Shown here in pieces: positions 1 through 64,000 of a stretch of DNA of 64,000 nucleotides (positions within the stretch are counted from its first letter, which is position 1; each line of letters begins with the position of its first letter). The stretch is from Trueperaceae bacterium (GTDB lineage Bacteria; Deinococcota; Deinococci; Deinococcales; Trueperaceae): contig JASBUK010000016.1 of the NCBI GenBank assembly GCA_030147925.1, positions 15,713 through 79,712 on the forward strand. Reading direction: 5' to 3'. A program made the position numbers and the translations under genes. The notes beneath the pieces were generated by a model. That model was not told the origin of the DNA. It saw only the letters and a program-made list of their open reading frames with translations, and made no database searches.

Positions 1-885
1 TATATCATTGCCGAGTTGGGCAAAGGTCGCTATGCACTTTCTGGTGAGATTACCGGCGATAGCCAAGCGGCCCCGGGCAGCCCCGGGCAGCAGTTTACCG
101 TTACCATCTTGGTGGTAGACGCCGAGACACGTGAGAGTTCCGACTTGATCAGTCAGGCGCTTGAAGGCCGTTATGTGGAGGCCGCCAGGGCGCTGTCGCT
201 GGCGGTGCAGCGGTTTTTAAATCGCGCAAACAGCCTAGCGGAGGGTTCAGCCGGTCTGTTTATTTCCAGTCAACCCGGACAGGCCCAGGTTTTTGTCAAT
301 GGTGTGAATGTCGGTGAAACCTCCGAATTGGCACCGCTGATGTTGCAGCCGGGTCGTTATGAGATTGAGTTTCGTAAAGAAGGTTTTTTGCCGCAGATCG
401 AAGCGGTGATCTTAGAGGCCGAGCGCACGGAGTTTATCAACGTCTTGCTGACGCCCATTAGTGGGGGTAGCATTCAGGTTAACAGCCAACCTGCGGCCAC
501 GGTCTTTGTCGATGACCGCGAGGTCGGTCTCACGCCGATAACCGTGCAAACGCGACCCGGCTTGCGTCAGCTAAGGCTCGAGCGCCCGGGTTTTGCAGCA
601 AAGACCCTGTCGGTTAATGTGAGAAATTTCCGGGTAAGCCGGGTTTCGGCTAAGCTCGAGCCCAATAGCGAGACCCGCTTGTTCTGGGAGCCACCGGAAA
701 ATTATTTGCTGTTTATAGATGGTGTATTGCGGCTTGACAGTTTTGCCGCCGACCTCACCCCCGGCCCACACAAGGTCGAGTTGCGACAAGGTGGCGAAGC
801 GCTGAGTTTTAATTTTGACTTGCCGGAGGAGGGCGTATTCGTGCTTGATTTAGATAGCTTAAGCCTCTTGCCCTTTGAACCTTAA
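1..885 (+). CDS. PEGA-domain repeat protein (5' end outside window)
   Basis: The frame of ORF 16-885 stays open back to nt 1. It has repeated modules 'VFVNGVNVGET..L.PGRYEIEFRKEGF' and 'VFVDDREVGLTP..PGLRQLRLERPGF', typical of PEGA repeats. Confidence 0.7.
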   Translation, partial: YIIAELGKGRYALSGEITGDSQAAPGSPGQQFTVTILVVDAETRESSDLISQALEGRYVEAARALSLAVQRFLNRANSLAEGSAGLFISSQPGQAQVFVNGVNVGETSELAPLMLQPGRYEIEFRKEGFLPQIEAVILEAERTEFINVLLTPISGGSIQVNSQPAATVFVDDREVGLTPITVQTRPGLRQLRLERPGFAAKTLSVNVRNFRVSRVSAKLEPNSETRLFWEPPENYLLFIDGVLRLDSFAADLTPGPHKVELRQGGEALSFNFDLPEEGVFVLDLDSLSLLPFEP

Positions 886-1904
886 AACGACCAGCTGTAG
901 CCCAAACTGAGACCAAGCTGACCGTCATTTATATTATCGTCATAGCTGGCAAAGACGCTAATTTCCAATTCGCCGGGACCTGTGTTGCTTTGCAGACCGG
1001 CTATGGCCCGATAGGGCAGGGTGTCACTGCGATAGGGTTCGGCTGAAAGCTTGAACTCATATGTTGTTGCCGTGCTTATGCTGCCGCTTATGCTGAGCCT
1101 GGCACCGGGTTGCAAGCCCTGCTCGCTCAGACCCAACCACAGCGAGCCTTTGATAAACGACAAGTTACGGCGGTTCAGTTTGTATTCAAAACCGCTTGCC
1201 AAGTAGCTACGCTCGTTATCAGGTTGTAATTCCGCTAGCAAGAGCACGGCGCCATCATCACGTTCTACCAAACGACGCAATTGCAAAGCGCCGCTCAGTT
1301 GGGCGCCAAAGTCACCGCCGCTGAAATAGAGAAGTCTTGGATCGAGCTCGAGCACGGTAGTTCTGTCGAGCCTGAAGCTGGCGCCAAGAGTCAGGCTATA
1401 GGCTATTTCAGATAGTAAACGCGCCTTGAGGTAATTGCGCCCAAGGCCGGAGTCAAAAGCTTCCTGAGGCCTAAAATAGCTGCTGTTTACATTAAACACC
1501 AGCAATTCTGCGCGGGCGGCAACTGTGGCTATTATCCCCGAGGCCGAGAGCGCGGCGGCAAATCTGCCGCTGGTATCCAAATCTGCTCGCCCCCCTATAA
1601 GGACATTGCCCAGCGGGCCGAAGAAGGTATTTGAGCGCAAACCTAGACCGAGCTCGAGCGGAGTAGAGATACCGGCAGCTATCCGGGCGTCGAGTTTGAC
1701 CTCTTCAAGCTCAAGGTCGCTGAGCACAAGCTCCGCTTTAGTTGTGATAGCCTCAGAATTACGCTCCAGATTTACGGCAAAAAGTAAAGACTGCGCTTGC
1801 ACGTAAGACAAAGAACTAAACAGCAAAATGCAAAAAAATACAAATCTTGCACCGATGTTAAAAAGCCAAGTAGCACGAGAAAAATCAAACGCAGGGTTTT
1901 TCAT
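882..1904 (-). CDS. hypothetical secreted, outer-membrane beta-barrel-like protein
   Basis: 340-aa ORF with an N-terminal hydrophobic signal-like segment 'FVFFCILLFSSLSYVQA', an alternating strand-like pattern, and the aromatic C-terminus 'LGYSWSF'. I do not recognise a family. Confidence 0.5.
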   Translation of the reverse strand: MKNPAFDFSRATWLFNIGARFVFFCILLFSSLSYVQAQSLLFAVNLERNSEAITTKAELVLSDLELEEVKLDARIAAGISTPLELGLGLRSNTFFGPLGNVLIGGRADLDTSGRFAAALSASGIIATVAARAELLVFNVNSSYFRPQEAFDSGLGRNYLKARLLSEIAYSLTLGASFRLDRTTVLELDPRLLYFSGGDFGAQLSGALQLRRLVERDDGAVLLLAELQPDNERSYLASGFEYKLNRRNLSFIKGSLWLGLSEQGLQPGARLSISGSISTATTYEFKLSAEPYRSDTLPYRAIAGLQSNTGPGELEISVFASYDDNINDGQLGLSLGYSWSF

Positions 1905-2139
1905 ATCGTTAGGGGATCAATTGGACTCGGTATTAGCATAAAACTTTGCCCCGTATATAGGTTTTATCATCTGTTAGCTTAACACCTAATAATGTTAAGC
2001 TATACGGCGGTCATAGCGGGCAGTGGCATTATTGCCCACTGCTGGGGGCGCTTAGCACTCGCATTTTTTAGGAGCTGGTGTTAGACTCGTCGCCGGCTTT
2101 GGTATGCAGATCTTGCATACCGTGACTGGAGAAACTGAA

Positions 2140-4686
2140 ATGAACATTCTAGGACGTGTTACTGTCTTGCCGAATTTGCCCAAACGCGCTATGCGTTTGG
2201 GCGACCTGGCCTACAACCTTTACTGGGCCTGGGAGCCAAATGCCCGCATACTTTTCCGTGAGCTTGATAGAGAGCTTTGGGAAAATTCCGGACACAACCC
2301 CGTGACGGTTTTGCGTGACATCCCCCAAGAACGGCTCGAGCAAGCCGCCAAGGACAAGGCCTATCTAGCGGATTACGACAAGGTTATCAAAGTCTTTGAC
2401 AACTATCTGAATCATAACGGTACCTGGTTTGATAAACATATTAAGAATGGAGAAGAACACCGCTATGCTTATTTCTGTGCCGAATACGGTTGGCACGAAG
2501 CGCTTGCACTCTACTCGGGTGGCTTGGGCGTTTTGGCTGGTGATCACACCAAAGCGGCCTCGGATTTGGGCGTGCCCTTAACGGGTGTGGGTCTGTGGTA
2601 TCCCGAAGGATATTTCCATCAACGTATCGATGCCAACGGTCAACAAGAGGCGGTTTATCAGCGCCTTAGTCCGCTGGATTTGCCCTTTGAGGTCGTGCGT
2701 AACGAGGAAGGTAACGAACTACGGGTGAGTGCGCCCTTAGCCGGGAGGGAAGTGCAATTGCGCGCCTGGAAAACCAAGGTGGGTCGTGTTGCTGTTTATC
2801 TTCTGGATACTGACGTGCCAGAAAATACGCTGGCGGATCGCTCCCTCTTAGTGAGGCTTTATGGTGGTGATCAGCATACCCGCGTAGCCCAGGAGATCAT
2901 TCTGGGTATTGGCGGGGTCAGGCTGCTGCGCGCCCTGGATATCGCACCGACCACCTGGCACATGAACGAGGGACACAGCGCCTTTATGGCCCTGGAGCGC
3001 TGCCGCGAACTGGTGGCCGAAGGCATGACCTTTGACCAGGCCCGCGAGTTTGTCGCTGCTGGAACCATCTTTACCGTGCATACGCCGGTGGCTGCAGGCA
3101 ACGATGCTTTCCCCTTCGATCTGGTCAGCCAGTTTTTTAATGGCTACTGGGGTAGCCTGGGACTTAGCCAGCAGCAGTTTTTGGACTTAGCACGTCATGA
3201 TCATGGTTGGGGGCCGGTCTTTAGTATGCCGGCACTGGCACTACGCTTTTCTTCGGGGCGCAATGGCGTGGCCAAGCTGCACGGTGAGACCAGCCGCCAG
3301 ATTTGGAACGATCTTTGGCCCGGCGTCCCCACCGATGAAGTGCCCATTGGTCACGTCACCAACGGGGTTCACGCGCCCACCTGGGTTGCCCGCGAGATGG
3401 CTGATTTGGTCGAATCGGTCCTGCCTGACGGTTGGCAGCAAAGCCTTGACGATGAGCAGGCATGGCAAAAGGTCCGCGAACTTGACAGCGCCGAATTCTG
3501 GAGCGTCAGACAACATCTCAAGTCGCAAAGCGTCAGGTTTTTGCGCCGCCGTGTCTTAAAGCAGCAGACGCGCCATGGGGTAATGCCCACGAGTATGCAC
3601 GACACCGGCGAGCTTTTTAATCCAGAAATTCTGACTATTGGCTTTGCCCGGCGCTTTGCTACGTATAAGCGCGCCACCTTGATTCTGACCGATCTTGAGC
3701 GTTTGGACCGTATTGTTAATAATCCGGAAAAACCCGTACAGCTGGTCTTTGCAGGCAAGGCCCACCCGGCAGATAGACCCGGGCAGGAGCTTATCGCGGC
3801 AATTCACAACCTGTCAAAAGACCCGCGTTTTGCCGGTAAAGTTCTCTTTGTTGAGGATTACGACATGGCTATTGGTCGGACGCTTACTCGCGGTGTCGAT
3901 GTCTGGTTGAACAACCCGCGCCGCCCGCTCGAGGCTTCGGGTACCAGTGGTCAAAAGGCGGCTATGAACGGCATTCTGAACTTAAGCATTTTAGATGGGT
4001 GGTGGCCCGAGGGTTATGACGGCCACAACGGTTGGGCGATTGGCACAGGACGCAACCACCGTGATAATCAACAGGGCGATGCCGCCGATGCCGATGCTCT
4101 TTATGACCTGCTCGAGCGCGAGGTCGTGCCGCTTTACTATCAGCGTGATGACAAGGGGATTCCCCAGGAATGGATCGAGCGGGCCAAAAATGCGATTGCT
4201 ACGGTCAGCCCGGAGTTTAACGCCAAGCGTATGGTCAAAGACTATGTTCAGCAGTATTATGCTCCGGCCTCGGAGCGCTCTAGGGCTATGAGTACTGATA
4301 AATACGCCCCGGCAATTGCACTGGCAAGCTGGCGCAAGCATGTGAGCTCGAGCTGGGGCAATATTTACTTTAGTGCTCGAGCCTTACAAGATGGTATTCG
4401 CCGCATCGGTGACGAACTAGAGGTAGAGGCCGTATTACAACCACAGGACATTGACCTTAAGGGCTTGCAGGTTGAGCTTGTTTATAGTTTAGAAACCGAC
4501 GAATTAAAACACAATTTGCATATTGTCCCTATGGAACGTGTAGAATCCTATCCTGATGGCGGCTTTCTTTTCAAGGTGAACTTCAAACCGGAAATAAGTG
4601 GCCGCCTGATTTATGGTGTGCGTGTTTACCCGGTTCATAAAGACTTGGTCAGCCCTTATGACACCCGCTTGATACGCTGGGCCTGA
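2140..4686 (+). CDS. glgP: alpha-glucan (glycogen/maltodextrin) phosphorylase, GT35
   Basis: N-terminal 'LAYNLYWAWEP' region and the PLP-lysine motif 'EASGTSGQKAAMNG'. Start moved to ATG 2140 (MNILGRV), which has GGAG upstream. Confidence 0.9.
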   Translation: MNILGRVTVLPNLPKRAMRLGDLAYNLYWAWEPNARILFRELDRELWENSGHNPVTVLRDIPQERLEQAAKDKAYLADYDKVIKVFDNYLNHNGTWFDKHIKNGEEHRYAYFCAEYGWHEALALYSGGLGVLAGDHTKAASDLGVPLTGVGLWYPEGYFHQRIDANGQQEAVYQRLSPLDLPFEVVRNEEGNELRVSAPLAGREVQLRAWKTKVGRVAVYLLDTDVPENTLADRSLLVRLYGGDQHTRVAQEIILGIGGVRLLRALDIAPTTWHMNEGHSAFMALERCRELVAEGMTFDQAREFVAAGTIFTVHTPVAAGNDAFPFDLVSQFFNGYWGSLGLSQQQFLDLARHDHGWGPVFSMPALALRFSSGRNGVAKLHGETSRQIWNDLWPGVPTDEVPIGHVTNGVHAPTWVAREMADLVESVLPDGWQQSLDDEQAWQKVRELDSAEFWSVRQHLKSQSVRFLRRRVLKQQTRHGVMPTSMHDTGELFNPEILTIGFARRFATYKRATLILTDLERLDRIVNNPEKPVQLVFAGKAHPADRPGQELIAAIHNLSKDPRFAGKVLFVEDYDMAIGRTLTRGVDVWLNNPRRPLEASGTSGQKAAMNGILNLSILDGWWPEGYDGHNGWAIGTGRNHRDNQQGDAADADALYDLLEREVVPLYYQRDDKGIPQEWIERAKNAIATVSPEFNAKRMVKDYVQQYYAPASERSRAMSTDKYAPAIALASWRKHVSSSWGNIYFSARALQDGIRRIGDELEVEAVLQPQDIDLKGLQVELVYSLETDELKHNLHIVPMERVESYPDGGFLFKVNFKPEISGRLIYGVRVYPVHKDLVSPYDTRLIRWA

Positions 4687-4700
4687 TTCGAAATATCTGC

Positions 4701-4728
4701 TTTAGGGCGGGTTTTGACCCGCCCTAAA
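4701..4728 (+). terminator. hairpin terminator downstream of glgP
   Basis: Perfect 11-bp stem TTTAGGGCGGG/CCCGCCCTAAA with a 6-nt loop, 15 nt after the glgP stop. Confidence 0.6.
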
Positions 4729-6849: not shown

Positions 6850-7755
6850 TTAGGGTGTGGCTGGGGCAGGCAAGTTATCAAAGGCAGCAGGAGGGCGCAA
6901 CAGCCGCCAGTTCCACTGGCCGTTGCGTCGGGGTGGCCAGATGACAGCGGTGGCCCGTCCGGCTACCGACATCATAGTGACCGGACCAAAATAACGCGAA
7001 TCCTCGCTACCGCCTTTGGCACTTTCGCGGTTGTCGCCCATGACAAAATACGTACCTTCAGGGACAATCAAATCCTGTATAAAGGGAATACCCTCAGGGG
7101 CATCATCTGGGATGGGCGCCAGTGCCTCTATGGTGCTGCCATAAAAGAGCTGTACCAGCGGCGAGTTGACTGCTACGGGTTGGGGATTGCGGAAGCTACC
7201 GGCATAACTGCCCTGGGCCAGACCCTGAAAGCCGACAACTTCGCCGTTTTGTACCACTATCACCGGAAAATCCACCGGATCAGGCCGGATTTCGCCGCTA
7301 TCGGTGATAAAGCCCTGGTCAATTGGCAGATCATTGATATAAACCTGACCATTGTCAATGCGTAGCCGGTCACCAGGAACGGCAATCAGGCGCTTTATGA
7401 AAAAGGGACGGCGCTCGCGTATCTGTGCTGACGGGGCGTTGGCAGGCTCGCGCACCACCAGGACTTCACCCCGCTGATAAGGCCCGAGGATACCGGCACG
7501 GCGCAGCCAGGTGTCGTATTTGGGGATAAATACCCGATCGCCGGTAAACAGCGATTGCGGCAGTTGACCGTTGCCGCCATTTAGGTTAGGACGCATCGAG
7601 CTACCGACCACGCCGACGGTATTAAAAACAAAAGTGACGACTAAAAAAGCAATGACCAACGCTTCGGCGTAACCACGGACTTCAGCCCAGAAACGTTGAC
7701 TTGCGGTGGGTTTGGGGCTCGAGCTCTGCTTGGCTCGATGTTTAGAACCTGACAT
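6850..7755 (-). CDS. lepB: signal peptidase I paralogue (longer, with an insertion)
   Basis: 'GSSMRPNL', 'KRLIAVPGD', 'GDNRESAKGGSEDSRYFGPV'. It is about 90 aa longer than its neighbour. Confidence 0.85.
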   Translation of the reverse strand: MSGSKHRAKQSSSPKPTASQRFWAEVRGYAEALVIAFLVVTFVFNTVGVVGSSMRPNLNGGNGQLPQSLFTGDRVFIPKYDTWLRRAGILGPYQRGEVLVVREPANAPSAQIRERRPFFIKRLIAVPGDRLRIDNGQVYINDLPIDQGFITDSGEIRPDPVDFPVIVVQNGEVVGFQGLAQGSYAGSFRNPQPVAVNSPLVQLFYGSTIEALAPIPDDAPEGIPFIQDLIVPEGTYFVMGDNRESAKGGSEDSRYFGPVTMMSVAGRATAVIWPPRRNGQWNWRLLRPPAAFDNLPAPATP

Positions 7756-7782: not shown

Positions 7783-8688
7783 CTAGTGTTTGACAGAATC
7801 AGACGTTTTCTGCGTGCTGCTATCTGTTAGTTGTTTGCGGGCTCGAGCTTCAGGTAGTAAGTTAGTCATTTGAAAGGTCTCGCTAGCGGCTCGCTCACCT
7901 AATTCCACGATTTCCTCGTAGGCAAAAAACGACTCGATGTGGATATGTGGCATGGCGGGTTGAATGCGAATATCCGCCGGGTGCATGCTGTACTGGATAT
8001 CGGTAAGGATGCTCTGCATGATATCCGAAGAACGCAGCACCATCTGGGCCATGGGATTGCGACGCTCGAGCCTGACGGTCTTGAGCATGCGCTCCCACCA
8101 GTTATCCCCATTATTACCATTCTTAAAGGTGGCCCGGCGCGGTGGGGTCACGTCTGAGGCGACGGTGAAATTGGCGTTTAAAAAGGCCACGGCATTCACC
8201 GGCAAATTATTGACGATGCCGCCATCAGCCAGTGTGCGCCCCTGGAATTGCACCGGTTCAAAAGCGCCTGGGTAGCAACTGGAGGCACGCAGAGCAGTAA
8301 TCAAGTCACCCTTGAGGATAAATACTTCCTCACCGGTTTCGATATCGGTAGTTGAAACGGCTAAGGGCTTCTTGAGATCATCAAAATTACGAGGGAGGTA
8401 TTCGGCCAAAAAATTGTGTAGCTTTTCGCCCTTGATAAGACCAGCATTGAGCGAGAGGTCAAAGACATCACGCCAGGAAGTTTTTTTAGCCAGTTGATAG
8501 ATGTCCTCGGCGCGGTAGCCAGCAGCACAAAACGCTCCTAAGATAGCGCCCATAGAACTGCCAGCGATCACGTCTACATCAATACCGGAGCGCTCGAGCA
8601 CCCGCATGACACCGATATGGGCAAAGGCTCGAGCCCCGCCGCCACTTAAAATAAGCCCCACCCGCTGTGTTTGATCCACCATTTCCAT
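7783..8688 (-). CDS. patatin-like phospholipase
   Basis: 'GGGARAFAHIGV' oxyanion motif, 'GSSMGA' (GxSxG) and 'ADGG' Asp motif. Start moved to ATG 8688 (MEMVDQ), clear of the upstream gene. Confidence 0.85.
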   Translation of the reverse strand: MEMVDQTQRVGLILSGGGARAFAHIGVMRVLERSGIDVDVIAGSSMGAILGAFCAAGYRAEDIYQLAKKTSWRDVFDLSLNAGLIKGEKLHNFLAEYLPRNFDDLKKPLAVSTTDIETGEEVFILKGDLITALRASSCYPGAFEPVQFQGRTLADGGIVNNLPVNAVAFLNANFTVASDVTPPRRATFKNGNNGDNWWERMLKTVRLERRNPMAQMVLRSSDIMQSILTDIQYSMHPADIRIQPAMPHIHIESFFAYEEIVELGERAASETFQMTNLLPEARARKQLTDSSTQKTSDSVKH

Positions 8689-8740: not shown

Positions 8741-9331
8741 CTATCTTTTCCGACATAGCAACACACCCTGACCGATTGGCACAACTAGGGCATCGACTCG
8801 CTGATCGGCAAGGGCCTGGTTAAGCATGGGCCTTAGTATTTTTTCAAAGTTAAGGGCGTTATCGGCAATGAGAATACCGCCTGATACCATTTTAGGTATT
8901 AGTAGCTCGTAACAGTCTTTATAGATTTCTTTCTCCGCGTCGAGAAAACAAAAAGAAACGTTGCTGTAGCTTAGCAGGTGATCGAGGGCGTCACCGTGAA
9001 TGAGACTAACAACATCGCCAACACCGGTCATCTCAAAAGTCTGTCGTGCCAACTCGACTTTTGCGGCCAGAATCTCAAACGTTGTGAGCTTCCGACCAAG
9101 GTCACGGCAGGCTAAAGACAGCCACAGACTGGAATATCCTGCACTGCTGCCAATTTCAAGATACTGCCCGGGAGGAGCACTAGCAGCCAGCAGAGCTATG
9201 AATTTGCCCGTTTCGGCTGGAATCTGGCGTAAGCGCTCGAGCCGGGGTATGCCGTCGGCTCGATCTTGCGCATCGAGCTCTTCGAGCTGTTTCATTCGCT
9301 TAAGAATTGCTCGCGGTATATCGTGAAACAT
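8741..9331 (-). CDS. class I SAM-dependent O-methyltransferase (family 3-like)
   Basis: '[11 protein letters not shown]' SAM motif and 'FCFLDAEK'. Start moved to ATG 9331 (MFHDIPR). Confidence 0.7.
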
Positions 9332-13290: not shown

Positions 13291-13746
13291 CTAGACCCCT
13301 AAAAAGCTAAATATTCGACCAGTGGGCAGGCCGAGCTCGAGCCCAAAGGCAAAGAGCGCATACATCACCAGGCTAAAGAGCAGCGCGGCCATAAGACTTC
13401 TTAGCGGCGGTCCCCTAAAGATCAGCGACAGCGATGCGAGCTCTAGGGTAGTGGCGAGGATAAACCCCAATGGCACCAACATATAGGCATAAGCAACAAA
13501 GCTTATGACAACAAGAATAATGCGCAGCCAGACGCTAAAGGGCGGCCAAGTGGGACCTTCGTCTGGCTTGAAGATTAAATAAAGGCTGCTAAGCCCCATA
13601 AACACCGCCAAAATAAAAGGGAAGGCTTTGGGGCCGACGGGGTCGGCAATAAAATTCACGTTGAAACTGCGGGCGGTAAGACCGTACCAACTGGCAAAGA
13701 TCAGCAGTAAAACACCGGCGATCCGGTCACTTAAGCGTTGAGACAT
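13291..13746 (-). CDS. tctB: tripartite tricarboxylate transporter, small membrane subunit
   Basis: Small four-helix membrane protein between tctC and tctA. Start moved to ATG 13746. Confidence 0.6.
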   Translation of the reverse strand: MSQRLSDRIAGVLLLIFASWYGLTARSFNVNFIADPVGPKAFPFILAVFMGLSSLYLIFKPDEGPTWPPFSVWLRIILVVISFVAYAYMLVPLGFILATTLELASLSLIFRGPPLRSLMAALLFSLVMYALFAFGLELGLPTGRIFSFLGV

Positions 13747-45544: not shown

Positions 45545-45545
45545 C

Positions 45546-51940: not shown

Positions 51941-52441
51941 ATGATTCGTACAGCGATTTTGACGGTGAGTGATAGGGGCTCGAGCGGTCAACGTGTGGAT
52001 ACGACCGTTTCAGAACTGCGAACTTTATTAAGCCAGGGGCCATTTAGCGAAGTTGACTACCAGATTGTCCCTGACGAACAGGCCATGATTCGCTCAAAGC
52101 TGAGAATCTGGGCCGAAGGCGATGCCGTAGACCTGGTGCTGACCACCGGGGGGACGGGTTTGTCCCTGCGGGACCGCACTCCGGAGGCTACCCGGGAGGT
52201 CATAGAACGCGAGGTGCCGGGTTTAGCCGAACTGATAAGGCTGACCGGCATGCAAAAAAACCGCAAGGCGGCACTGTCGCGTGCGGTTGCCGGTGTGAGG
52301 CGGCATACGCTCATTGTCAACTTGCCGGGAAGCCCCAAGGGTGCCAGGGAGTCGTTAGAGGCAATCATCGGGATTTTGCCACATGCAATTGACACTATTG
52401 TGGGTGAAAAGCGTAGCGCCCCACAAGACTGGCATCATTGA
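51941..52441 (+). CDS. mogA: MogA/MoaB-family molybdopterin adenylyltransferase
   Basis: 'ILTVSDRG' and 'LVLTTGGTGLSLRDRTPEA'. Start moved to ATG 51941. Confidence 0.8.
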   Translation: MIRTAILTVSDRGSSGQRVDTTVSELRTLLSQGPFSEVDYQIVPDEQAMIRSKLRIWAEGDAVDLVLTTGGTGLSLRDRTPEATREVIEREVPGLAELIRLTGMQKNRKAALSRAVAGVRRHTLIVNLPGSPKGARESLEAIIGILPHAIDTIVGEKRSAPQDWHH

Positions 52442-53235: not shown

Positions 53236-53421
53236 TGAGGTCACGGGGTGCAGCTTTTTATTACTCAGCAAATGTTGAGCCGGTAGAGTCGGCAAGACGT
53301 TATACTGATGACGCTTTGGCTATGGCTAGAATGTTAATTGCTTATTGCTCGAGCTAATGCACAACGTCACAATTCACGATAAGCCTTTAGCTGCGTGAAT
53401 CTTGAGGAAAAGGAGTTGAGC

Positions 53422-54386: not shown

Positions 54387-55358
54387 ATGAGCACAAAATT
54401 TGCCGTCGTCATTTTGGCAGCAGGGCAGGGCACTCGCATGAAGTCAACCCTGCCCAAAGTCCTGCATGAAGTCGTCGGTCGCCCCTTGCTCGAGCACGTT
54501 CTTAAAGCAGTAGCACCTTTAAAACCCGAGCGAACGGTGGTGGTAGTTGGCTATGGCGCCGAGCAAGTTAAGCAGCGCTTAGCGCATTATCCAATCGAGT
54601 TTGTTTTGCAAGAAGAGCGCTTGGGCACGGGGCATGCGCTTAGGCAAAGCGAGCTTGTCTTAAGAGACTTTGACGGGCCGGTGCTGGTGCTTAACGGTGA
54701 TGGGCCGCTGCTTAAAACCGCTACTTTAGCGGCCTTTATAGCCAAACAGCAAAGCTCTGCTGCGGGCATGTCACTGCTTACTTGTGAGGTGGCCGACCCT
54801 AGCGGTTTGGGCCGTATTGTTCGCAAAGAAGACGGCAGCGTAGCGCAGATTGTCGAGGAAAAGGACGCCGACTCGACACAAAAAAGTATCCGTGAAGTCA
54901 ACCCCGGCATCTATATGTTTGACCAGCAGGTTTTTGAGCTGGCCGCGCAGCTTAGCAATGATAACGCTGCTAAAGAATATTACATTACTGATCTGCCCGG
55001 TATTTATCTAAGTCTTGACAAGAGCGTGCAGGCACTGCGCATAGCCGATGAAACCGAGGTGCTGGGGATAAATGATCGCAAGCAACTGGCCTATGCAGAT
55101 CGCATTTTGCGCGACCGCGTCCGCGAACAGTGGCTTTTGGTTGGCGTCACCATGACCTCTCCCGAGCAGACCTTTATCGACGATACGGTGCACTTAGGGC
55201 CGGATGTGGTGCTCGAGCAGGGTGTCACCTTGACAGGTCGGACGGTGGTGGAAGCGGGTGCGCGCGTCGGGGCTTACGCCCACCTGACGGACTGCACCGT
55301 GACTAAGGGCGCGTACGTAGCACCGCACACGGTCAAGCGCGGGGAAACGCTTGGCTGA
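54387..55358 (+). CDS. glmU: GlmU-like N-acetylglucosamine-1-phosphate uridyltransferase with a truncated acetyltransferase domain
   Basis: 'ILAAGQGTRMKSTLPKVLH' and 'LVLNGDGPL'. It is only 323 aa, and the left-handed beta-helix stops after about 4 coils. Confidence 0.7.
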   Translation: MSTKFAVVILAAGQGTRMKSTLPKVLHEVVGRPLLEHVLKAVAPLKPERTVVVVGYGAEQVKQRLAHYPIEFVLQEERLGTGHALRQSELVLRDFDGPVLVLNGDGPLLKTATLAAFIAKQQSSAAGMSLLTCEVADPSGLGRIVRKEDGSVAQIVEEKDADSTQKSIREVNPGIYMFDQQVFELAAQLSNDNAAKEYYITDLPGIYLSLDKSVQALRIADETEVLGINDRKQLAYADRILRDRVREQWLLVGVTMTSPEQTFIDDTVHLGPDVVLEQGVTLTGRTVVEAGARVGAYAHLTDCTVTKGAYVAPHTVKRGETLG

Positions 55359-55387: not shown

Positions 55388-57592
55388 TCAAAGAAACTTG
55401 TAGTGCTTAAGTCCCTCCAAGACTCCCGCTGCGTAGTGACCGTCGGCGAAGTAGACGTGTTTCGCGCCCTTGAGTCTCGTCAACTCCTCGGCGTGATTGC
55501 CGACGACGATGCCCCGGAAATTTCCGCGCAGCATCTCCTCGTCGTTACCCGAATCCCCGGCGACGGCGATATTTTGGGCAGGAATACCCCACTTGTGACT
55601 TAAGTAGCGAATCGCTTTGCCCTTTGAGGCGCGGTGCGGCAAAACGTCCAAAAACTGTCCGTGCGAGTAGATCAGGTTGTAGCGCAGCTTGGCCTCGTTT
55701 AAAACCCGGTGGACGGTCTCGAGGTTACCATTTTCATTCCTCATATAGTAGCTGATCTTAAAGCGGCGCTGGTTGGCCTCTTCTTGTAGTTCCAGAAAAT
55801 CTAACTCAGCCAAAACTTCGCGGATCTTTTCCGGCTTCCACCGATAAGAGATGTGCTGGGCGTAGCCCTGGTCGGGCGTGAACTCGGGTCCATAATAGAT
55901 TTCGCTGCCGACCGATGAGACGATGATATCCGGCTGGGGGAGGTCATAAGAATCCAGAACTTCCTTGACGAGTTTTAGGGAACGTCCCGACGCCACCCCG
56001 AAACCGAGGGTCGGGTGTTTGTCCTTAAGGATCTTGTTCAGCTGAACAAGCGTGTTCTGAACGCCTGTGTCCTCTTTGTTGATCAGGGTGTAATCGATGT
56101 CGCTCATGAAGAGCTTGTCAATCGTCGTCAAGTAGCGCCCGACCCTGCCTCTAGGTTTGACGGCGGGCTGCGGGGCGTCCTCGCGCATAAGGTCGGAGAT
56201 GACGTCTAAGTAGGTGTCGCAGTGCGCCCGCCAAGAATAGTGCTCGCGCACGCCCTTAATACCGTTCTCCGAATAGCAGTTCCACAGTTCCCCATCTACT
56301 AAAATTTTCTTTAGCGCACCACTGATTTCTTTGTAATTTTGAACGTCGACTAAGATGCCGCTGTTACAGTTCTTAAGGATGTCTTGCGGCCCGCCGTGGT
56401 TGGTCGAAACGACTGGCAGCCCACTTGAACTCGCCTCGATGACGGTGATGCCGAAGTTCTCGACCAGGGCAGGGTTGACGAAAACGCCTTTGGTCGCCGC
56501 GGCAAGACGGTAAAGCGCGGGAATTTCCGTGTCGGGCTTGTGCTTTTTGGGCAGTGCCATCTTCCCATAAAGGTCGTACTTGTCCATCAGCAAAAGCATC
56601 TCGGTCAGGACTTTACGCTCGTTGTCGTCCATCTCCTGAATGTCTTTACGTACACCTGCAAAGATGGCTAGATTAGCGATTGATTGGAGCTCTTTGTCCT
56701 CACCGTAGGCGGTGACCAGGCCGTCGATGTTTTTGCGCTTGTCGGGTCGGCTGATCGCCAAAATGAGCGGCTTCTCGGGACGGTTTAAGAAGCGGTTGAT
56801 CTCTCTGCGCATGTTGACGCGCGCCCAGACCTGCTCCTCGCTGGGGGTTTGTGCCTCGTCCAAGTCATGGTAGTAAGGGTAGAACTTATCCACTTCGATA
56901 CCTGGCGGAACCACCTTGAAGGTCGTGCTTTTGTGCGCGTCGTAAAGTTCGTAGCCCCGCTCGACCTCGTGATGGGTACTGGCGATGACGATGTCTGACT
57001 TGCGCATCACCTCTTCCTCTACGCTGATGCGGTGATCGATATGGTACTGCTTGTCAATCTCTTTTTTGCTGAGCCCCGCTCTGGTTAGCACTTGCAGTTT
57101 ATTGCGACCCAGAGAGTGTCCTGTGAAGATGAGAGGCACACCCAGGTAGCCAGCGAGCTCCATCGCCACGTAGCCCGCGTCCGCGTAGTGGCCGTGGACG
57201 AGGTCCGGGGTGATGCCCTCCTTGCGGTTGAAGCGCAGCACACCGTCGACGAACTCGTCTAGGTGTGGCCAGAGCAGCTCTTTGCGTATGTACTTCTTGC
57301 CGCCTGCGCGGATGCGGACGATGCGGGCGTTGTCACTTAGGGGCTCGAGCCCCTGCGCGTAGTCTTCAGCCACCTTCGGATCCTCGATGCAGCGCGTGAA
57401 AAGGTCGACCTGGGCCACCTTCGGGTGCTTACCGAGCGCCCGCGCGAACTCGACCATATATTTGGTCTGCCCACCCGTGTCCGCGTCGCGCCCCAGCTCG
57501 AGGTCGTGCGAGCGAATCAGGCCGTGGAGGCTGAAAAGCTGAATACACAATCCGTCGTCGCTACTCTCTATCTTGCCGTCTGTTTTCGTCAT
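55388..57592 (-). CDS. sps: sucrose-phosphate synthase with a C-terminal SPP-like HAD domain
   Basis: GT4 N-terminus 'GGQTKYMVEFARALG'. C-terminal HAD motifs 'SDIDYTLI' and 'AGDSGNDEEM'. Confidence 0.85.
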   Translation of the reverse strand: MTKTDGKIESSDDGLCIQLFSLHGLIRSHDLELGRDADTGGQTKYMVEFARALGKHPKVAQVDLFTRCIEDPKVAEDYAQGLEPLSDNARIVRIRAGGKKYIRKELLWPHLDEFVDGVLRFNRKEGITPDLVHGHYADAGYVAMELAGYLGVPLIFTGHSLGRNKLQVLTRAGLSKKEIDKQYHIDHRISVEEEVMRKSDIVIASTHHEVERGYELYDAHKSTTFKVVPPGIEVDKFYPYYHDLDEAQTPSEEQVWARVNMRREINRFLNRPEKPLILAISRPDKRKNIDGLVTAYGEDKELQSIANLAIFAGVRKDIQEMDDNERKVLTEMLLLMDKYDLYGKMALPKKHKPDTEIPALYRLAAATKGVFVNPALVENFGITVIEASSSGLPVVSTNHGGPQDILKNCNSGILVDVQNYKEISGALKKILVDGELWNCYSENGIKGVREHYSWRAHCDTYLDVISDLMREDAPQPAVKPRGRVGRYLTTIDKLFMSDIDYTLINKEDTGVQNTLVQLNKILKDKHPTLGFGVASGRSLKLVKEVLDSYDLPQPDIIVSSVGSEIYYGPEFTPDQGYAQHISYRWKPEKIREVLAELDFLELQEEANQRRFKISYYMRNENGNLETVHRVLNEAKLRYNLIYSHGQFLDVLPHRASKGKAIRYLSHKWGIPAQNIAVAGDSGNDEEMLRGNFRGIVVGNHAEELTRLKGAKHVYFADGHYAAGVLEGLKHYKFL

Positions 57593-57871: not shown

Positions 57872-59014
57872 ATGTCACTACTGAACAAACCCCCTGCGGT
57901 ACTCGCACTCGAAGACGGCACCATTTACTACGGTTACGCCTTTGGCTATCACGGTCAGACCGTCGGTGAGGTGGTTTTTAACACCTCCATGACCGGCTAT
58001 CAGGAGATTCTCACCGACCCCAGCTACAACGGCCAAATTGTCACCATGACTTACCCGCATATCGGCAACTATGGCGTGAGCGTTTATGATATGGAGTCCA
58101 ATAAACCGTTTGCCCGGGGCTTTATCGTGCGGGAGTTTTCCCGCGTGGCCAGCAATTATCGCTCCAATCAGGATTTGCAGAGCTTTATGGAACAGCACAA
58201 CATCGTGGGCATCGAGGGCATTGACACACGTGCTCTGACCCGCCGTTTGCGCGAAGGTGGCGTGGTTAAAGGCGTGATTTATCACGGTAAAACCGATGAG
58301 GCTAAAGAGTCTGAACTGGTGCGCCAGGCTTTAGAACACGAGGATATAGACGGGCGCGATATGACTCCGGAAGTGACCACGCCGCTGCCTTACGCTCGGC
58401 CTACCTTTCAGGAAAACCCCCGTGTGGTGGTCATTGATTTTGGCATCAAGCACTCGATTGTTTATAAGCTCGAGCAATCCGGCGCCGAAGTCATTGTGGT
58501 ACCGGCGCAAACCACTCCAGCGCAAATCATGGCCCTAAATCCCTATGGTTTGGTACTGTCTAACGGCCCAGGTGATCCTGGCGGCCCGCGTTACGCCCAT
58601 GACACCGTCTGGCAACTATTGGGTCTGCTGCCAACCTATGGCATTTGCATGGGACATCAGCTTTTAGGCTTGGCGGTTGGCGGCAAGACTTACAAACTCA
58701 AGCACGGTCATCACGGGGCCAATACCCCGGTTAAAAACCTGATCACCGGCGAAGTGGAAATCACCAGTCAGAACCACAACTACGTGGTGGATATTGACAG
58801 CATCCCCGGCCAGCAGTTTAGGGCGACGCATATCAACTTAAACGACGGCACCCTAGAGGGCATGGCGCATGTGCGCTATCCGGTCTTTAGCGTGCAATAC
58901 CATCCGGAGGCCAGCCCGGGGCCGCATGACGCCAATTATCTGTTCAACCGCTTTATCGAAGAGGTCAACGCCTTTGAAGGGGCTAGTGCTCTGCCCGCTA
59001 TGCGCGGTTTTTAA
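57872..59014 (+). CDS. carA: carbamoyl-phosphate synthase small (glutaminase) subunit
   Basis: 'GICMGHQLL' catalytic Cys and '[13 protein letters not shown]'. Confidence 0.95.
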
Positions 59015-60107: not shown

Positions 60108-60487
60108 CGGTATTAGATGCGAGTGCCCTTATCGCCCTCGCCAGACAAGAGGCCGGGGCGTTAGCAGTAGCCCAAAAGCTCGGCTCGAGCCACGTGAGTG
60201 CTGCAAACGCCAGCGAGTTCATTCGGAAACTCGAGCAGTATGGCGATGATGGTGAACGGGCCTTTGAAAAGCTCGAGCAAATTGGCCTGACTTTACACGA
60301 AATAGAACGAGTCGACGCTTATGAAGCAGCGGCAATCTACCGGACCACCAAACCTTTCGGACTCTCTCTAGGCGACAGATTTTGTTTGGCCTTAGCCAGG
60401 CGTACCGGTGCGGAGGTTTACACTGCCGACATAGCTTGGCTAGACGTGGCCGATGAGCTAGGTCTTGAAATTCATGCCATTCGCTAA
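60104..60487 (+). CDS. vapC: PIN-domain toxin
   Basis: 'VLDASALIAL' first acidic motif, and 'TADIAW' near the C-terminus, 127 aa. Confidence 0.8.
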   Translation: MTVLDASALIALARQEAGALAVAQKLGSSHVSAANASEFIRKLEQYGDDGERAFEKLEQIGLTLHEIERVDAYEAAAIYRTTKPFGLSLGDRFCLALARRTGAEVYTADIAWLDVADELGLEIHAIR

Positions 60488-60631
60488 TTAAAGGGTGCTC
60501 GAGCCAAACGTCAAATAATTAAAAAAACAAATCATCTGCTGGGTTCTTAATCTCTGGCTGCAGAACTTAATTTACGGTAAAGTAAGCCGCGTGATGCTTT
60601 TGTGACGCCAAATCCTGCAAACTAATTATCG

Positions 60632-61345
60632 ATGCCGCGCAAGATTTTAGTTATCGAAGACGACCTCGATCTCTCTCACTTAATCAGCCTGCATTTGCGT
60701 GACACCGGCTGTGAAGTGGAAGTGACGCACGATGGCGCCTCGGGTCTTGATTTGGTGCTTAAAGAGGATTTTGACTTAGTTGTGCTTGATTTGATGTTGC
60801 CTAAGCTTGAGGGTTTAGAGGTCTGTCGGCGTTTGCGGGCGGCGGGGAATTACACGCTGGTGCTCATGTTGACAGCCAAATCCAGCGAGCTTGACCGCGT
60901 GTTAGGGCTCGAGCTTGGCGCCGATGATTACTTGAGCAAGCCTTTTAGCATTCGCGAGCTTCAGGCCAGAGTCAAGGCGCTGCTGCGGCGCAAGGAGCAG
61001 CTTGCCTCGCAGCTCAGCCGTAAAAAAGACAGCGGCCCTATAATTAGAGGAAGCTTGCAGATTGACGCCGAGAAACGTTTGGTAACGCTTGCCGGAGAGC
61101 CGGTACACCTTACCGCCAAGGAATTTGATTTGCTTTTGCAGTTTGCCCAGCATCCCGGGCGGGTTTATACCCGTACTCAGCTTTTGGATATGGTTTGGGG
61201 TTATGGCTATGACGGTTTTGAGCACACCGTCAATTCGCATATCAACCGCCTTCGAGCCAAGATTGAGCAGGACCCGGCTCATCCTGAGTACATTCAGACA
61301 GTGTGGAGCGTGGGCTATAAATTTGCCGAGTTTGAGGGGGCATAA
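60632..61345 (+). CDS. OmpR-family response regulator
   Basis: Receiver 'DLVVLDLMLPKLEG' and winged helix 'LTAKEFDLLLQF...VWSVGYKF'. Confidence 0.9.
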   Translation: MPRKILVIEDDLDLSHLISLHLRDTGCEVEVTHDGASGLDLVLKEDFDLVVLDLMLPKLEGLEVCRRLRAAGNYTLVLMLTAKSSELDRVLGLELGADDYLSKPFSIRELQARVKALLRRKEQLASQLSRKKDSGPIIRGSLQIDAEKRLVTLAGEPVHLTAKEFDLLLQFAQHPGRVYTRTQLLDMVWGYGYDGFEHTVNSHINRLRAKIEQDPAHPEYIQTVWSVGYKFAEFEGA

Positions 61346-61348: not shown

Positions 61349-62824
61349 TTGCTAAGGACGTTGCATGGCCGCCTGGCTTTGGTCTTACTGGTCTTGCTGG
61401 TACCTTTGGGCGGGCTCTTTGTCTTATCGACGCTTTATACCGCGCGGCGTTATCATCAGGAGATCAGCCAAAAGGTCAATGCTGATTTGGCCCAACGTTT
61501 GGTGCAAGACAGCAATTTGATGGTTGGCTCGAGCATTGACAGCAGCGCCTTTAACGCCGTGGCCAAAAGCTTGGCGATGATAAGCCCGGGTGTAGAACTT
61601 TATATCTTAGACCCCCAAGGGACGATTTTAGGGGCCTCGGTACCAGCAGAAAAACTAAAGCGGCAAGCTGTCGCGTTAGGACCACTGGAGCGCTTTTTGT
61701 CCGCTGCTGCTAGCTTTCCAATTAGTGGCACCGACCCGCGCAGTCAGCGGCGGCAAAAGGTGTTTTCGGCGTCACCAATACCAGCCCAAGGGTCCATTGA
61801 AGGCTATCTTTATGTGCTCTTGGCCGACGAAGCACAGGATTCCCTATCGCAGATGATCCAAAGCAGTTATGTGCTCAGCTTGAGCATTTGGAGTACCTTG
61901 GCCTTGCTCGGTCTGGTGTTTGTGGCCGGTTGGCTCATCTTTACGCTGCTAACAAGACGTCTTAAGCGACTGGCCCTGGCTATGACCGCCTTTAAGGACA
62001 GTGATTTTTCTGCCCAGGACTTGTTAAAACCGGTTAAGCGACCACCGGGGGACGAGGTGGAAGAGCTCGAGCTGGTCTTTGGTGATATGGCTCAGCGTAT
62101 TTCCCAGCAGCTTGAGGCCATTAAGCAAGCGGATGTCTTGCGCCGAGAACTAATTACCAATGTCTCTCATGATTTGCGCACGCCTTTAGCGGCTTTGCAG
62201 GGCTATCTGGAGACCCTAGAAATTAAAGAGGGCAACCTTAGCCCCCAGCAGCAGCGTGAATATCTGCGTATCGCCAGTCAGCATAGCGTGCGCCTGGGCA
62301 AGCTCATTGCCGAGCTATTTGACTTAGCCCAGCTTGATTCCCGGGCTATAAGCCCCTGCTTAGAGGCTTTTCCCATCGCCGAGCTGGGTCAGGATATTTT
62401 GCAGAAGTTTCAGCTTTCAGCCCAGCGCAAAGGCGTCAGCCTTAAACTGGTAGCACCAGCAAGACTCCCCTTTGTTATGGCGGATATCGGCCTTATCGAA
62501 CGGGTCTTTACCAACCTCATCGACAATGCCATTCGCTACACGCCCAGCGGGGGAGAGGTCTGTCTAAAACTGGCGGTTAGTGGTTCTGAGCTTGTTATCG
62601 AACTGACCGATACTGGTCGGGGTATCGCCCCGGAAGATTTACCCCATATCTTTGACCGTTTTTATCGCGTGGACAAGCACGATCCGCAGGCCTCGGAAGG
62701 CGCAGGCTTAGGCTTGGCCATCAGCAAGCGCATTCTCGAACTTCATGGTTGCTCTATTGAAGCAAAAAGTGAAGCGCAAAAAGGCTCGAGCTTTTGCTTT
62801 AGTTTGCCCATAGCGCAGCCATAA
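61349..62824 (+). CDS. sensor histidine kinase (HAMP-HisKA-HATPase)
   Basis: H-box 'SHDLRTPL', 'DNAIRYTP', 'DTGRGI', 'GAGLGLAI', and two transmembrane segments. Confidence 0.9.
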   Translation: MLRTLHGRLALVLLVLLVPLGGLFVLSTLYTARRYHQEISQKVNADLAQRLVQDSNLMVGSSIDSSAFNAVAKSLAMISPGVELYILDPQGTILGASVPAEKLKRQAVALGPLERFLSAAASFPISGTDPRSQRRQKVFSASPIPAQGSIEGYLYVLLADEAQDSLSQMIQSSYVLSLSIWSTLALLGLVFVAGWLIFTLLTRRLKRLALAMTAFKDSDFSAQDLLKPVKRPPGDEVEELELVFGDMAQRISQQLEAIKQADVLRRELITNVSHDLRTPLAALQGYLETLEIKEGNLSPQQQREYLRIASQHSVRLGKLIAELFDLAQLDSRAISPCLEAFPIAELGQDILQKFQLSAQRKGVSLKLVAPARLPFVMADIGLIERVFTNLIDNAIRYTPSGGEVCLKLAVSGSELVIELTDTGRGIAPEDLPHIFDRFYRVDKHDPQASEGAGLGLAISKRILELHGCSIEAKSEAQKGSSFCFSLPIAQP

Positions 62825-63841: not shown

Positions 63842-63863
63842 AAACAAACTACAAATGCTTGAT

Positions 63864-63893
63864 AGCTAAGGCGGTTTTATAGCCGCCTTAGCT
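63864..63893 (+). terminator. intrinsic terminator between the spondin-like gene and dtd
   Basis: 11-bp perfect stem AGCTAAGGCGG/CCGCCTTAGCT followed by TTTTT. The dtd stop codon lies inside the right arm. Confidence 0.7.
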
Positions 63894-64000
63894 TTTTGAG
63901 CTTTTTGTCAAAACTGCTGTATCCAGCCAGATGGTTACCGGACCATCGTTTAGCAGGCTCACCTTCATCTCGGCGCCAAAGACACCGGAGGCGACGCTTA
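63888..64000 (-). CDS. dtd: D-aminoacyl-tRNA deacylase, C-terminal fragment (the rest is outside the window)
   Basis: Minus-strand translation '...[33 protein letters not shown]' matches the conserved Dtd C-terminus 'FGA.M.VSL.NDGPVT'. Confidence 0.7.

Follow-up and report, generated by a model that had tools for sequence, protein, structure and literature searches.

GCTCGAGC, a HIP-class palindromic octamer in a Truepera-related chromosome

Why should a single eight-base palindrome recur about once per kilobase along a bacterial chromosome, in every reading frame and between genes as well as within them? The question is raised by a stretch of 64,000 nucleotides (the window) from a Trueperaceae bacterium, in which an earlier note, made by eye, had seen the XhoI hexamer CTCGAG repeatedly embedded in the octamer GCTCGAGC and had likened it to the highly iterated palindrome HIP1 (GCGATCGC) of cyanobacteria. 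We analyzed the abundance of this octamer against several null models, its relation to the proteins encoded in the window, and its occurrence in relatives, metagenomes, and phages. The behavior that emerged is that of the HIP class, with a new core, in a new phylum, and with dialects within a clade.

The enriched unit and its independence from coding

Exact counting in the 64,000-bp window gave 70 copies of CTCGAG, 61 of GCTCGAGC, and 9 of GGCTCGAGCC, which match the estimates made by eye (about 70, about 60, and nine), and every coordinate reported earlier deviated by 1 to 12 bases at most from an exact site, such as those at 4110, 4346, 7717, 8592, 16194, and 50137. The G+C content had been overestimated at about 55% and was measured at 52.3%. 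The octamer occurred at 953 copies per Mb (0.95 per kb), whereas Markov models of orders 0 to 3 predicted between 1.2 (order 0) and 3.7 (order 3) copies in the whole window, and 100 dinucleotide-preserving shuffles yielded a mean of 1.4 and at most 5. GCTCGAGC was the commonest 8-mer, the next six were its own overlaps, and the first unrelated 8-mer was present only 13 times. Over-representation ranged from 23-fold under a codon-aware null to 44-fold under the dinucleotide null. HIP1 itself had no copy in the window and CGATCG only one. A maximal-order Markov comparison, proposed in the earlier note as a check, returned 58.5 expected against 61 observed copies (observed/expected ratio [O/E] of 1.04), yet it was uninformative here because the conditioning 7-mers (63 and 65 copies) and 6-mer (70 copies) are the same sites. 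We relied instead on dinucleotide and synonymous-codon shuffles, on Markov models of lower order, and on the fractions of sites that extend symmetrically.

Symmetric extension defined the size of the element. TCGA was extended to CTCGAG in 26% of cases and CTCGAG to GCTCGAGC in 87%, but the octamer was extended to a 10-mer in only 15%, with 6.8% expected at random for each step. The enriched unit is therefore the octamer, with a G/C preference for the tenth position that is weak at most. CTCGAG lacking the G...C frame sat at background, with only 9 hexamers outside octamers. Thus, the recognized unit in this genome is the 8-mer and not the XhoI hexamer. Six of the eight bases of this perfect palindrome are G or C (75% G+C), and as a palindrome it has no orientation and so lacks the strand-oriented skew of polar motifs such as Chi and the FtsK-orienting polar sequences (KOPS). 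One-base variants of GCTCGAGC showed no excess in coding DNA (23 observed and about 34 expected). Positions flanking the eight bases carried at most 0.14 bit each, and the gaps between octamers fit an exponential distribution (coefficient of variation of 1.02; Kolmogorov-Smirnov P = 0.79), which is Poisson spacing. With unconserved flanks and Poisson spacing, the octamer is not a mobile repeat.

We then considered how far coding sequence accounts for these sites. An open reading frame (ORF)-based gene model assigned 92% of the window to 59 genes and left 4,819 bases non-coding. When codons were permuted within each gene, leaving proteins and per-gene codon usage unchanged, coding DNA contained 2.6 ± 1.5 octamers over 1000 such synonymous shuffles and never more than 9, compared with 59 in the real sequence; the hexamer was expected 16 times and observed 68 times. 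Relative to analytic expectations, the frame xxG-CTC-GAG-Cxx held 37 copies against 1.0 expected (36-fold), xGC-TCG-AGC held 11 against 0.8 (14-fold), and GCT-CGA-GCx held 11 against 0.25 (44-fold). All three readings occur in the glucan phosphorylase (glgP-like) ORF at 2104-4686, as had been described earlier (LLER at 4110, SSSW at 4346, and ARA at 4375). Since every frame is enriched 14- to 44-fold, an explanation by codon pairs in a single frame fails. The Leu-Glu dipeptide was unremarkable in frequency (147 observed versus 141). Of the codons involved, CTC is not the one favored for Leu, and CGA is used least of all for Arg, with 11 of its 79 occurrences falling within octamers. The remaining 2 of the 61 copies are intergenic, at 53347 and 60497 as first noted, where about 0.09 were expected from the order-0 rate over the non-coding bases; octamer density was 0.41 per kb in intergenic and 1.0 per kb in coding DNA. 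These findings support the central claim of the earlier note, that this is a HIP-like palindrome of the DNA itself with a core unlike that of HIP1.

The proteins of the window offer 106 peptide contexts in which the octamer could be encoded synonymously (55 of X-L-E-[HLPQR], 34 of [CGRS]-S-S, and 17 of A-R-A), and 59 of these (56%) were occupied, including 37 of the 55 Leu-Glu contexts. Leu-Glu was written as CTCGAG in 69% of octamer-compatible contexts and in 9% of cases elsewhere, with 7% expected, so the bare hexamer is not the target in the window. Compared with shuffled proteins, the real ones contained about twice as many compatible peptides (55 versus 29 and 34 versus 16.5, both P about 5e-4, and 17 versus 10.5), and residues following Leu-Glu had C-initial codons in 46% of cases against 27% expected. 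Codon alignments with relatives revealed both octamers created by synonymous change and derived replacements. An LLEH peptide reads TTG-CTC-GAG-CAC in the window and CTT-TTA-GAG-CAC or TTG-CTG-GAG-CAC in relatives. In sucD, a clear derived replacement gives VLEL where four relatives have VLKM, VLKM, ALKL, and VLRL, and ELEH takes the place of QTEV, ETER, and QAER in relatives. In all five comparisons, octamer-encoded residues were less often identical to those of relatives than other residues were (59% versus 71%; pooled Fisher P = 0.01, with the same sites recurring across pairs). A DNA-level process thus installs and keeps the octamer, overriding codon usage and in part protein conservation. 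This process has roughly doubled the frequency of octamer-capable peptides, and octamer density is limited by the supply of compatible coding contexts.

CTCGAG was the sole strongly enriched palindromic hexamer of the window (z = 13). As a separate observation, palindromes were otherwise avoided under the synonymous-shuffle null, with CGGCCG found once against 31.6 expected, CGATCG once against 13.0, and ATTAAT not at all against 11.6; GGATCC, AGATCT, GGGCCC, ACGCGT, and TCGCGA each had an O/E below 0.25 in coding DNA. This avoidance suggests past or present restriction systems of those specificities. The second commonest palindromic octamer, GCTTAAGC (8 copies), has a GC...GC frame like that of GCTCGAGC and was considered as a second HIP or as a doubly deaminated derivative. 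It was rejected as either, since its excess was not significant, with 7 copies against 2.1 expected and a maximum of 8 in 300 synonymous shuffles.

Dialects among relatives and occurrence in phages

We scored loci of 12 to 21 kb from relatives with the same synonymous-shuffle null. The CTCGAG O/E was 6.0 in L149 (ERZ25072999; G+C of 0.51), which carried 2.1 CTCGAG per kb, and 4.6 in L026 (ERZ25070591; G+C of 0.56), followed by 3.1 in L022, 2.4 in L021, and a borderline 1.8 in L148. In L025 (JGI 3300061561), the octamer had an O/E of 16 and was the top 8-mer. The ENA assemblies ERZ25070591 and ERZ25072999 include contigs ctg148532, ctg146117, ctg148524, and ctg314717, whose names and lengths of up to 4.6 Mb suggest that long reads were assembled. 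Truepera radiovictrix (L024) and the Deinococcales metagenome-assembled genome (MAG) GCA_037386005.1 (L027), with CTCGAG O/E values of 1.7 and 1.3, were no different from two unrelated high-GC controls (L007 and L008), which gave 1.7 to 1.8. Leu-Glu was encoded by CTCGAG in 76% of compatible and 48% of incompatible flanks in L149 and in 50% and 39%, respectively, in L026, with 9 to 13% expected. Because CTCGAG is used in both flank contexts, the enriched unit in these two genomes is the hexamer, and any flank effect was limited to a preference for G at position -1. The hexamer itself was likewise enriched in a JGI metagenome contig (L034), unlike in the window. As relatives enrich the bare hexamer or nothing, specificity evolves within the clade, whose members share the CTCGAG core with an evolving flank specificity, and the window holds the strictest octamer form.

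Individual sites were rarely held in common. For each relative, 0 or 1 of 2 to 15 aligned sites was shared, with relatives being 46 to 93% identical at the protein level. The KLEQ site of carA, in contrast, is an octamer in four genomes.

In metagenome and viral contigs, we looked for clusters of three octamers in stretches of about 80 bases, which gave at least 120 matches per scan. The triple-octamer matches listed were mostly high-GC contigs or (GAGCTC)n hexanucleotide arrays, with few clear dispersed cases. Among these contigs, L038 (JGI metagenome, 1-8746) had 15 CTCGAG, all 15 inside GCTCGAGC, for 1.7 per kb and with 1.4 expected, and L034 (1-6704) had 66 CTCGAG in 6.7 kb (10 per kb) with 83% of Leu-Glu written as CTCGAG. 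These two contigs indicate that the phenomenon is not confined to the genome of the window. Tailed-phage contigs from IMG/VR with portal, terminase, and head-tail connector genes were also observed, namely L194 (1-9392)/L221 and L214/L231. The former had 18 octamers in 9.4 kb at a G+C of 0.54 and the latter 20 in 7.5 kb at a G+C of 0.66. In both, GCTCGAGC was the top 8-mer, at 1.9 to 2.7 per kb and with a coding O/E of about 8. The terminase of the octamer-rich phage was 34% identical to actinophage terminases.

Likeness to HIP1 and candidate mechanisms

GCTCGAGC and HIP1 are both octameric palindromes of 75% G+C with an outer GC-NNNN-GC frame, and each is by far the commonest 8-mer at about 1 per kb, occurs in all frames and in non-coding DNA independently of codons, and has an inner hexamer that is unenriched outside the octamer. 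These are properties of the HIP class, which requires a G+C of at least 75% and a density of roughly 500 to 2500 copies per Mb (PMC4390886 section 2.3), a range that includes the 953 of the window. Two further properties of the class, one-base deviants at the first and last positions and a cyanobacterial host, were lacking. The class is also described by a higher conservation of sites between related genomes than that of control palindromes (Xu et al. 2018). The central tetramer is GATC in HIP1 and TCGA here, the hosts are Cyanobacteria and Deinococcota, respectively, and HIP1 has the known cognate methyltransferases DmtA and DmtC. The alternate HIPs (Elhai 2015: GGGATCCC, TCGATCGA, GGCGCC, rCCGGy, and GCsGC) similarly place a GC-rich palindrome in the HIP role without HIP1, at similar density and with a sporadic, clade-limited spread among relatives. 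All of these are cyanobacterial, however, and include neither GCTCGAGC nor CTCGAG, and the related genomes studied here share a core with graded flanks. Full-text literature searches turned up no publication that describes an excess of GCTCGAGC or CTCGAG, and none on HIPs in Deinococcota.

On balance we consider it probable that GCTCGAGC is a HIP-class palindrome of a Truepera-related chromosome that is sustained by an orphan CTCGAG methyltransferase together with a coupled repair or recombination bias, the mechanism being inferred. A resident sequence-specific enzyme would recognize the site, with a predicted orphan methyltransferase of CTCGAG specificity as the most probable candidate, and the coupled bias would turn near-sites into sites and protect existing ones. 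By analogy with Elhai's proposal for HIP1, repair keyed to a G-mC dinucleotide could act as a ratchet that converts the neighboring bases to G...C, up to a density of about 1 site per kb. For HIP1, the proposed target of the orphan methyltransferase is the inner hexamer CGATCG, which is not enriched outside HIP1, and the flanking G/C creates the G-mC dinucleotide (PMC4390886). The G+CTCGAG+C architecture, the saturation density of about 1 per kb (0.95 per kb here), and the behavior of the hexamer all match this model (PMC4390886 sections 2.3, 3.1, and 3.4).

Several observations weigh against this mechanism. Pfam and NCBIfam scans of all ORFs found no DNA methyltransferase, Vsr-like, MutH-like, or restriction gene in the 64-kb window, so the earlier statement that no CTCGAG methyltransferase is visible there holds; the scans gave only small-molecule-type S-adenosylmethionine (SAM) methyltransferases. 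A motif-based screen for DNA methyltransferases in all retrieved loci gave spurious ORFs only. Characterized XhoI-family methyltransferases modify adenine, whereas it is the first cytosine that must be methylated in the G-mC model. The ratchet also fails to account for the flank-independent enrichment of the hexamer in L149, L026, and L034. The 25 one-base variants in the whole window were spread over the symmetric position pairs as 6, 7, 6, and 6, small counts that show no outer-position bias, unlike HIP1. Furthermore, the presence of the octamer in phage contigs means that the process must act on phage DNA too or that the motif benefits the phage. Very-short-patch repair by Vsr at Dcm sites (CCWGG) in Escherichia coli offers a likeness, in that methylation-linked repair raises the frequency of methylated sites, but the effect there is well under 2-fold, versus 23- to 44-fold for GCTCGAGC, and the window showed no detectable depletion of C-to-T variants (GCTTGAGC, n = 3; GCTCAAGC, n = 0).

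The main rival, which we regard as unlikely, is that the octamer is an uptake or self-tag signal that is favored in transformation or recombination of incoming DNA and spreads by molecular drive. A density of about 1 per kb, drive at the DNA level in all frames, an imprint on proteins, and lineage dialects are traits of the DNA uptake sequences (DUS) of Neisseria and the uptake signal sequences (USS) of Pasteurellaceae, and all fit the octamer. The window does encode PilB and PilT, ATPases of type IV pili, although these proteins are generic. DUS and USS are non-palindromic and longer (9 to 12 bases), often form inverted pairs in intergenic terminators, and have demonstrated uptake specificity, whereas 59 of the 61 copies of the palindrome GCTCGAGC lie inside genes and the intergenic density is the lower one. 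Sequence-specific uptake is not known in Deinococcota, and the motif would be unexpected in lytic-type phage structural modules, unless these belong to prophages. Recent work, which speaks for an uptake role, has linked HIP1 to methylation-dependent transformation efficiency and a self-tag drive (10.64898/2026.06.24.733823).

We find it improbable that the octamer is a selected binding site for a chromosome-organizing or nucleoid-associated protein. A sharp 8-base definition without a halo of decayed one-off copies and the conserved carA site are consistent with such a role, and a function in chromosome structure has been argued for HIP1 from a 10-90 kb periodicity (PMC5861425). However, the Poisson spacing shows no regularity at the scale of the window, occupancy follows the supply of compatible peptides and not position, most sites are unshared with relatives, and the close relatives T. 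radiovictrix and L027 do without the motif.

Two other explanations were refuted. The octamer could be a by-product of coding, through favored codon pairs or favored Leu-Glu, Ser-Ser, or Ala-Arg-Ala peptides, and in line with this, 63% of coding copies share the frame xxG-CTC-GAG-Cxx and codon bias makes CTCGAG common in the unrelated high-GC controls; against it stand the synonymous shuffles, the enrichment in every frame, the unpreferred CTC and CGA codons, the ordinary Leu-Glu frequency, the intergenic copies, and the expected rate (9%) of CTCGAG at Leu-Glu outside octamer contexts. The core of a dispersed mobile repeat, such as a repetitive extragenic palindrome (REP) or miniature inverted-repeat transposable element (MITE), or a cloning or assembly artifact such as XhoI linkers would explain the high copy number and nothing else, since REPs and MITEs conserve sequence or structure beyond the core and the copies here have uninformative flanks, lie in frame within conserved genes without disrupting them, and in carA and the aminotransferase gene occupy orthologous positions in independent assemblies.

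The reason for the abundance of HIP1 in cyanobacterial genomes has been sought since the 1990s. Repair directed by methylation, a part in recombination or transformation, and a role in chromosome structure are the candidates, and they resist separation since almost every cyanobacterium has the same motif and the same methyltransferases. The window shows a formally parallel element (GC+TCGA+GC versus GC+GATC+GC) in another lineage, unrelated to the cyanobacteria, and the variation of the trait among fairly close relatives provides a comparative handle, in that methyltransferase, nuclease, and competence genes can be profiled against motif strength. Tentatively, CTCGAG/GCTCGAGC may have evolved independently as a HIP system in a Truepera-like Deinococcota clade, and apparently in some tailed phages, with dialects that comprise the strict octamer, the bare hexamer, and absence. 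If so, HIP-type genome writing would not be peculiar to cyanobacteria and would arise generally from some combination of enzymes, and contrasts within the clade could expose this machinery, possibly including an enzyme with a true 8-base GCTCGAGC specificity. The machinery has been elusive in 30 years of work on HIP1.

Host, foreign DNA, and neighboring genes

The best named matches of IlvD and SucC, at 80 to 85% identity, were to T. radiovictrix and to Trueperaceae, Deinococcales, and Deinococcota MAGs, and the collections searched held no relative closer than about 85%. The sucCD region has the order moaB-like gene, DUF456 gene, lgt, nucleotidyltransferase, sucrose-phosphate synthase, carA, ABA4-like gene, response regulator, and kinase. 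With small differences, this order is common to L024, which carries the T. radiovictrix SucC, and L027; the sucrose-phosphate synthase gene is absent from the region in T. radiovictrix. An ilvD-abrB-tctABC-aminotransferase block is common to the window and L022. Judged from these protein matches and gene orders, the host is a Truepera-like member of the Deinococcota with an unusually low G+C content and not a cyanobacterium.

The earlier note had also proposed absence of the octamer as a marker of foreign DNA, and this proved to be of little use for gaps as such. The gaps are Poisson-like, with a maximum length of 5.7 kb (P = 0.19) and a variance-to-mean ratio of 0.86 for counts in 2-kb bins. 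The long octamer-free genes ilvD, abrB, tctA, pilT, and leuC have only 1, 0, 0, 0, and 1 compatible contexts, respectively. Because long gaps coincide with genes that offer few compatible contexts or none, raw absence is a poor marker, and occupancy of compatible contexts gauges the residence time of a gene better. The proposal retained some support at a Drt4-like reverse-transcriptase gene located between the aminotransferase gene and leuB, which has a G+C of 0.40 and a third-position G+C of 0.35, versus 0.52 for the window, and none of whose 3 compatible contexts is occupied (P about 0.09). These features suggest that this gene was recently acquired, and in no other gene of the window is recent acquisition a plausible reason for missing octamers.

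A cluster at 38927-49142 encodes a pyruvate:ferredoxin oxidoreductase (PFOR) and a bidirectional NiFe hydrogenase with diaphorase and hydrogenase subunits of the hox type. It sits between sucD and a glutamyl-tRNA-synthetase-like gene, which adjoin each other in L027. In a contig scan, the best match of PFOR was only 67% identical and came from distant genomes. The cluster has a normal octamer density (8 in 10 kb), and it is therefore old or came from a donor with the same motif.

Other gene neighborhoods were observed in the window. Two small genes for class-I SAM methyltransferases (21785-22621 and 23240-23863) are interspersed among leuB-leuD-leuC (20727-25319, minus strand); by Pfam, both enzymes are of the small-molecule type and not DNA methyltransferases. 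PilT-like and PilB type IV pilus ATPases are encoded at 25546-29586 (minus strand), and the same pair adjoins sucCD in the relative L148; the PilB protein (885 amino acids) has several N-terminal MshEN-type cyclic di-GMP-binding domains (NF053729, 4 stretches). The densest octamer spot of the window is a MazE-like antitoxin and PIN toxin pair at 59856-60504, where the 384-bp PIN gene contains two octamers and is followed, 10 bases past its stop codon, by another one (Table 1).

Table 1. Positions of GCTCGAGC, GCTTAAGC, and the reverse-transcriptase gene in the window. GCTCGAGC sites rest on exact counting and the ORF model.
Feature	Position	Strand	Location	Peptide	Remark
GCTCGAGC	576..583	.	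ORF 1-885(+)	RLER	AGG-CTC-GAG-CGC
GCTCGAGC	654..661	.	ORF 1-885(+)	KLEP	
GCTCGAGC	1346..1353	.	ORF 882-1904(-)	VLEL	
GCTCGAGC	1652..1659	.	ORF 882-1904(-)	PLEL	
GCTCGAGC	2334..2341	.	glgP-like ORF 2104-4686(+)	RLEQ	
GCTCGAGC	4110..4117	.	ORF 2104-4686(+)	LLER	
GCTCGAGC	4346..4353	.	ORF 2104-4686(+)	SSS	AGC-TCG-AGC
GCTCGAGC	4375..4382	.	ORF 2104-4686(+)	ARA	GCT-CGA-GCC
GCTCGAGC	7717..7724	.	ORF 6850-7755(-)	SSS	
GCTCGAGC	7841..7848	.	patatin ORF 7783-8784(-)	ARA	
GCTCGAGC	8064..8071	.	patatin ORF 7783-8784(-)	RLER	
GCTCGAGC	8592..8599	.	patatin ORF 7783-8784(-)	VLER	
GCTCGAGC	8627..8634	.	patatin ORF 7783-8784(-)	ARA	
GCTCGAGC	9235..9242	.	ORF 8741-9403(-)	RLER	
GCTCGAGC	13335..13342	.	TctB ORF 13291-13812(-)	GLEL	
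GCTCGAGC	13958..13965	.	TctC ORF 13846-14823(-)	ARA	
GCTCGAGC	14956..14963	.	ORF 14888-15856(-)	KLEQ	
GCTCGAGC	16194..16201	.	ORF 15853-16962(-)	ELEL	
GCTCGAGC	16277..16284	.	ORF 15853-16962(-)	ARA	
GCTCGAGC	16344..16351	.	ORF 15853-16962(-)	ELEQ	
GCTCGAGC	18532..18539	.	aminotransferase ORF 17702-18895(-)	LLEP	octamer also in relative L022
GCTCGAGC	21443..21450	.	leuB-like ORF 20727-21788(-)	GLEH	
GCTCGAGC	22111..22118	.	ORF 21785-22621(-)	ALEH	
GCTCGAGC	22938..22945	.	ORF 22584-23237(-)	GSS	
GCTCGAGC	23316..23323	.	ORF 23240-23863(-)	ARA	
GCTCGAGC	23716..23723	.	ORF 23240-23863(-)	LLEL	
GCTCGAGC	29414..29421	.	PilB ORF 26929-29586(-)	ARA	
GCTCGAGC	31251..31258	.	ORF 31090-31428(-)	ELEH	
GCTCGAGC	31908..31915	.	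ORF 31511-31924(+)	RSS	
GCTCGAGC	32368..32375	.	TatD ORF 31921-32706(-)	RSS	
GCTCGAGC	33667..33674	.	ORF 33146-33922(+)	RLEL	
GCTCGAGC	34083..34090	.	trpA ORF 33962-34744(-)	ARA	
GCTCGAGC	34314..34321	.	trpA ORF 33962-34744(-)	ARA	
GCTCGAGC	36747..36754	.	ORF 36244-37017(-)	LLEL	
GCTCGAGC	36819..36826	.	ORF 36244-37017(-)	RLEP	
GCTCGAGC	37177..37184	.	ORF 37103-38056(-)	GLEH	
GCTCGAGC	37956..37963	.	ORF 37103-38056(-)	ARA	
GCTCGAGC	38293..38300	.	ORF 38069-38692(-)	KLEP	
GCTCGAGC	40250..40257	.	NiFe hydrogenase large subunit ORF 39402-40850(-)	ALEL	
GCTCGAGC	40273..40280	.	NiFe hydrogenase large subunit ORF 39402-40850(-)	ARA	
GCTCGAGC	41500..41507	.	ORF 41422-42132(-)	GSS	
GCTCGAGC	43041..43048	.	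ORF 42181-43836(-)	RLEQ	
GCTCGAGC	43723..43730	.	ORF 42181-43836(-)	CSS	
GCTCGAGC	45148..45155	.	ORF 44531-45544(-)	GLEL	
GCTCGAGC	45806..45813	.	PFOR ORF 45546-49142(-)	GLEQ	
GCTCGAGC	48209..48216	.	PFOR ORF 45546-49142(-)	SLEH	
GCTCGAGC	49645..49652	.	sucD ORF 49340-50278(-)	VLEL	
GCTCGAGC	50137..50144	.	sucD ORF 49340-50278(-)	ELEH	
GCTCGAGC	51978..51985	.	ORF 51857-52441(+)	GSS	
GCTCGAGC	53347..53354	.	intergenic, upstream of lgt		
GCTCGAGC	54488..54495	.	ORF 54387-55358(+)	LLEH	same LLEH is TTAGAG/CTGGAG in relatives
GCTCGAGC	55211..55218	.	ORF 54387-55358(+)	VLEQ	
GCTCGAGC	57343..57350	.	sucrose-phosphate synthase ORF 55388-57592(-)	GLEP	
GCTCGAGC	58468..58475	.	carA ORF 57872-59014(+)	KLEQ	octamer also in L024, L025, L027
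GCTCGAGC	60183..60190	.	PIN ORF 60104-60487(+)	GSS	
GCTCGAGC	60271..60278	.	PIN ORF 60104-60487(+)	KLEQ	
GCTCGAGC	60497..60504	.	intergenic, just downstream of PIN ORF		
GCTCGAGC	60907..60914	.	response-regulator ORF 60632-61345(+)	GLEL	
GCTCGAGC	61527..61534	.	histidine-kinase ORF 61349-62824(+)	GSS	
GCTCGAGC	62065..62072	.	histidine-kinase ORF 61349-62824(+)	ELEL	
GCTCGAGC	62784..62791	.	histidine-kinase ORF 61349-62824(+)	GSS	
GCTTAAGC	857, 15990, 18631, 30055, 36367, 40085, 49338, 49951	.			
Drt4-like reverse-transcriptase gene	18952..20667	-			octamer-free; NCBIfam NF041749, E = 7e-70, under family cut-off

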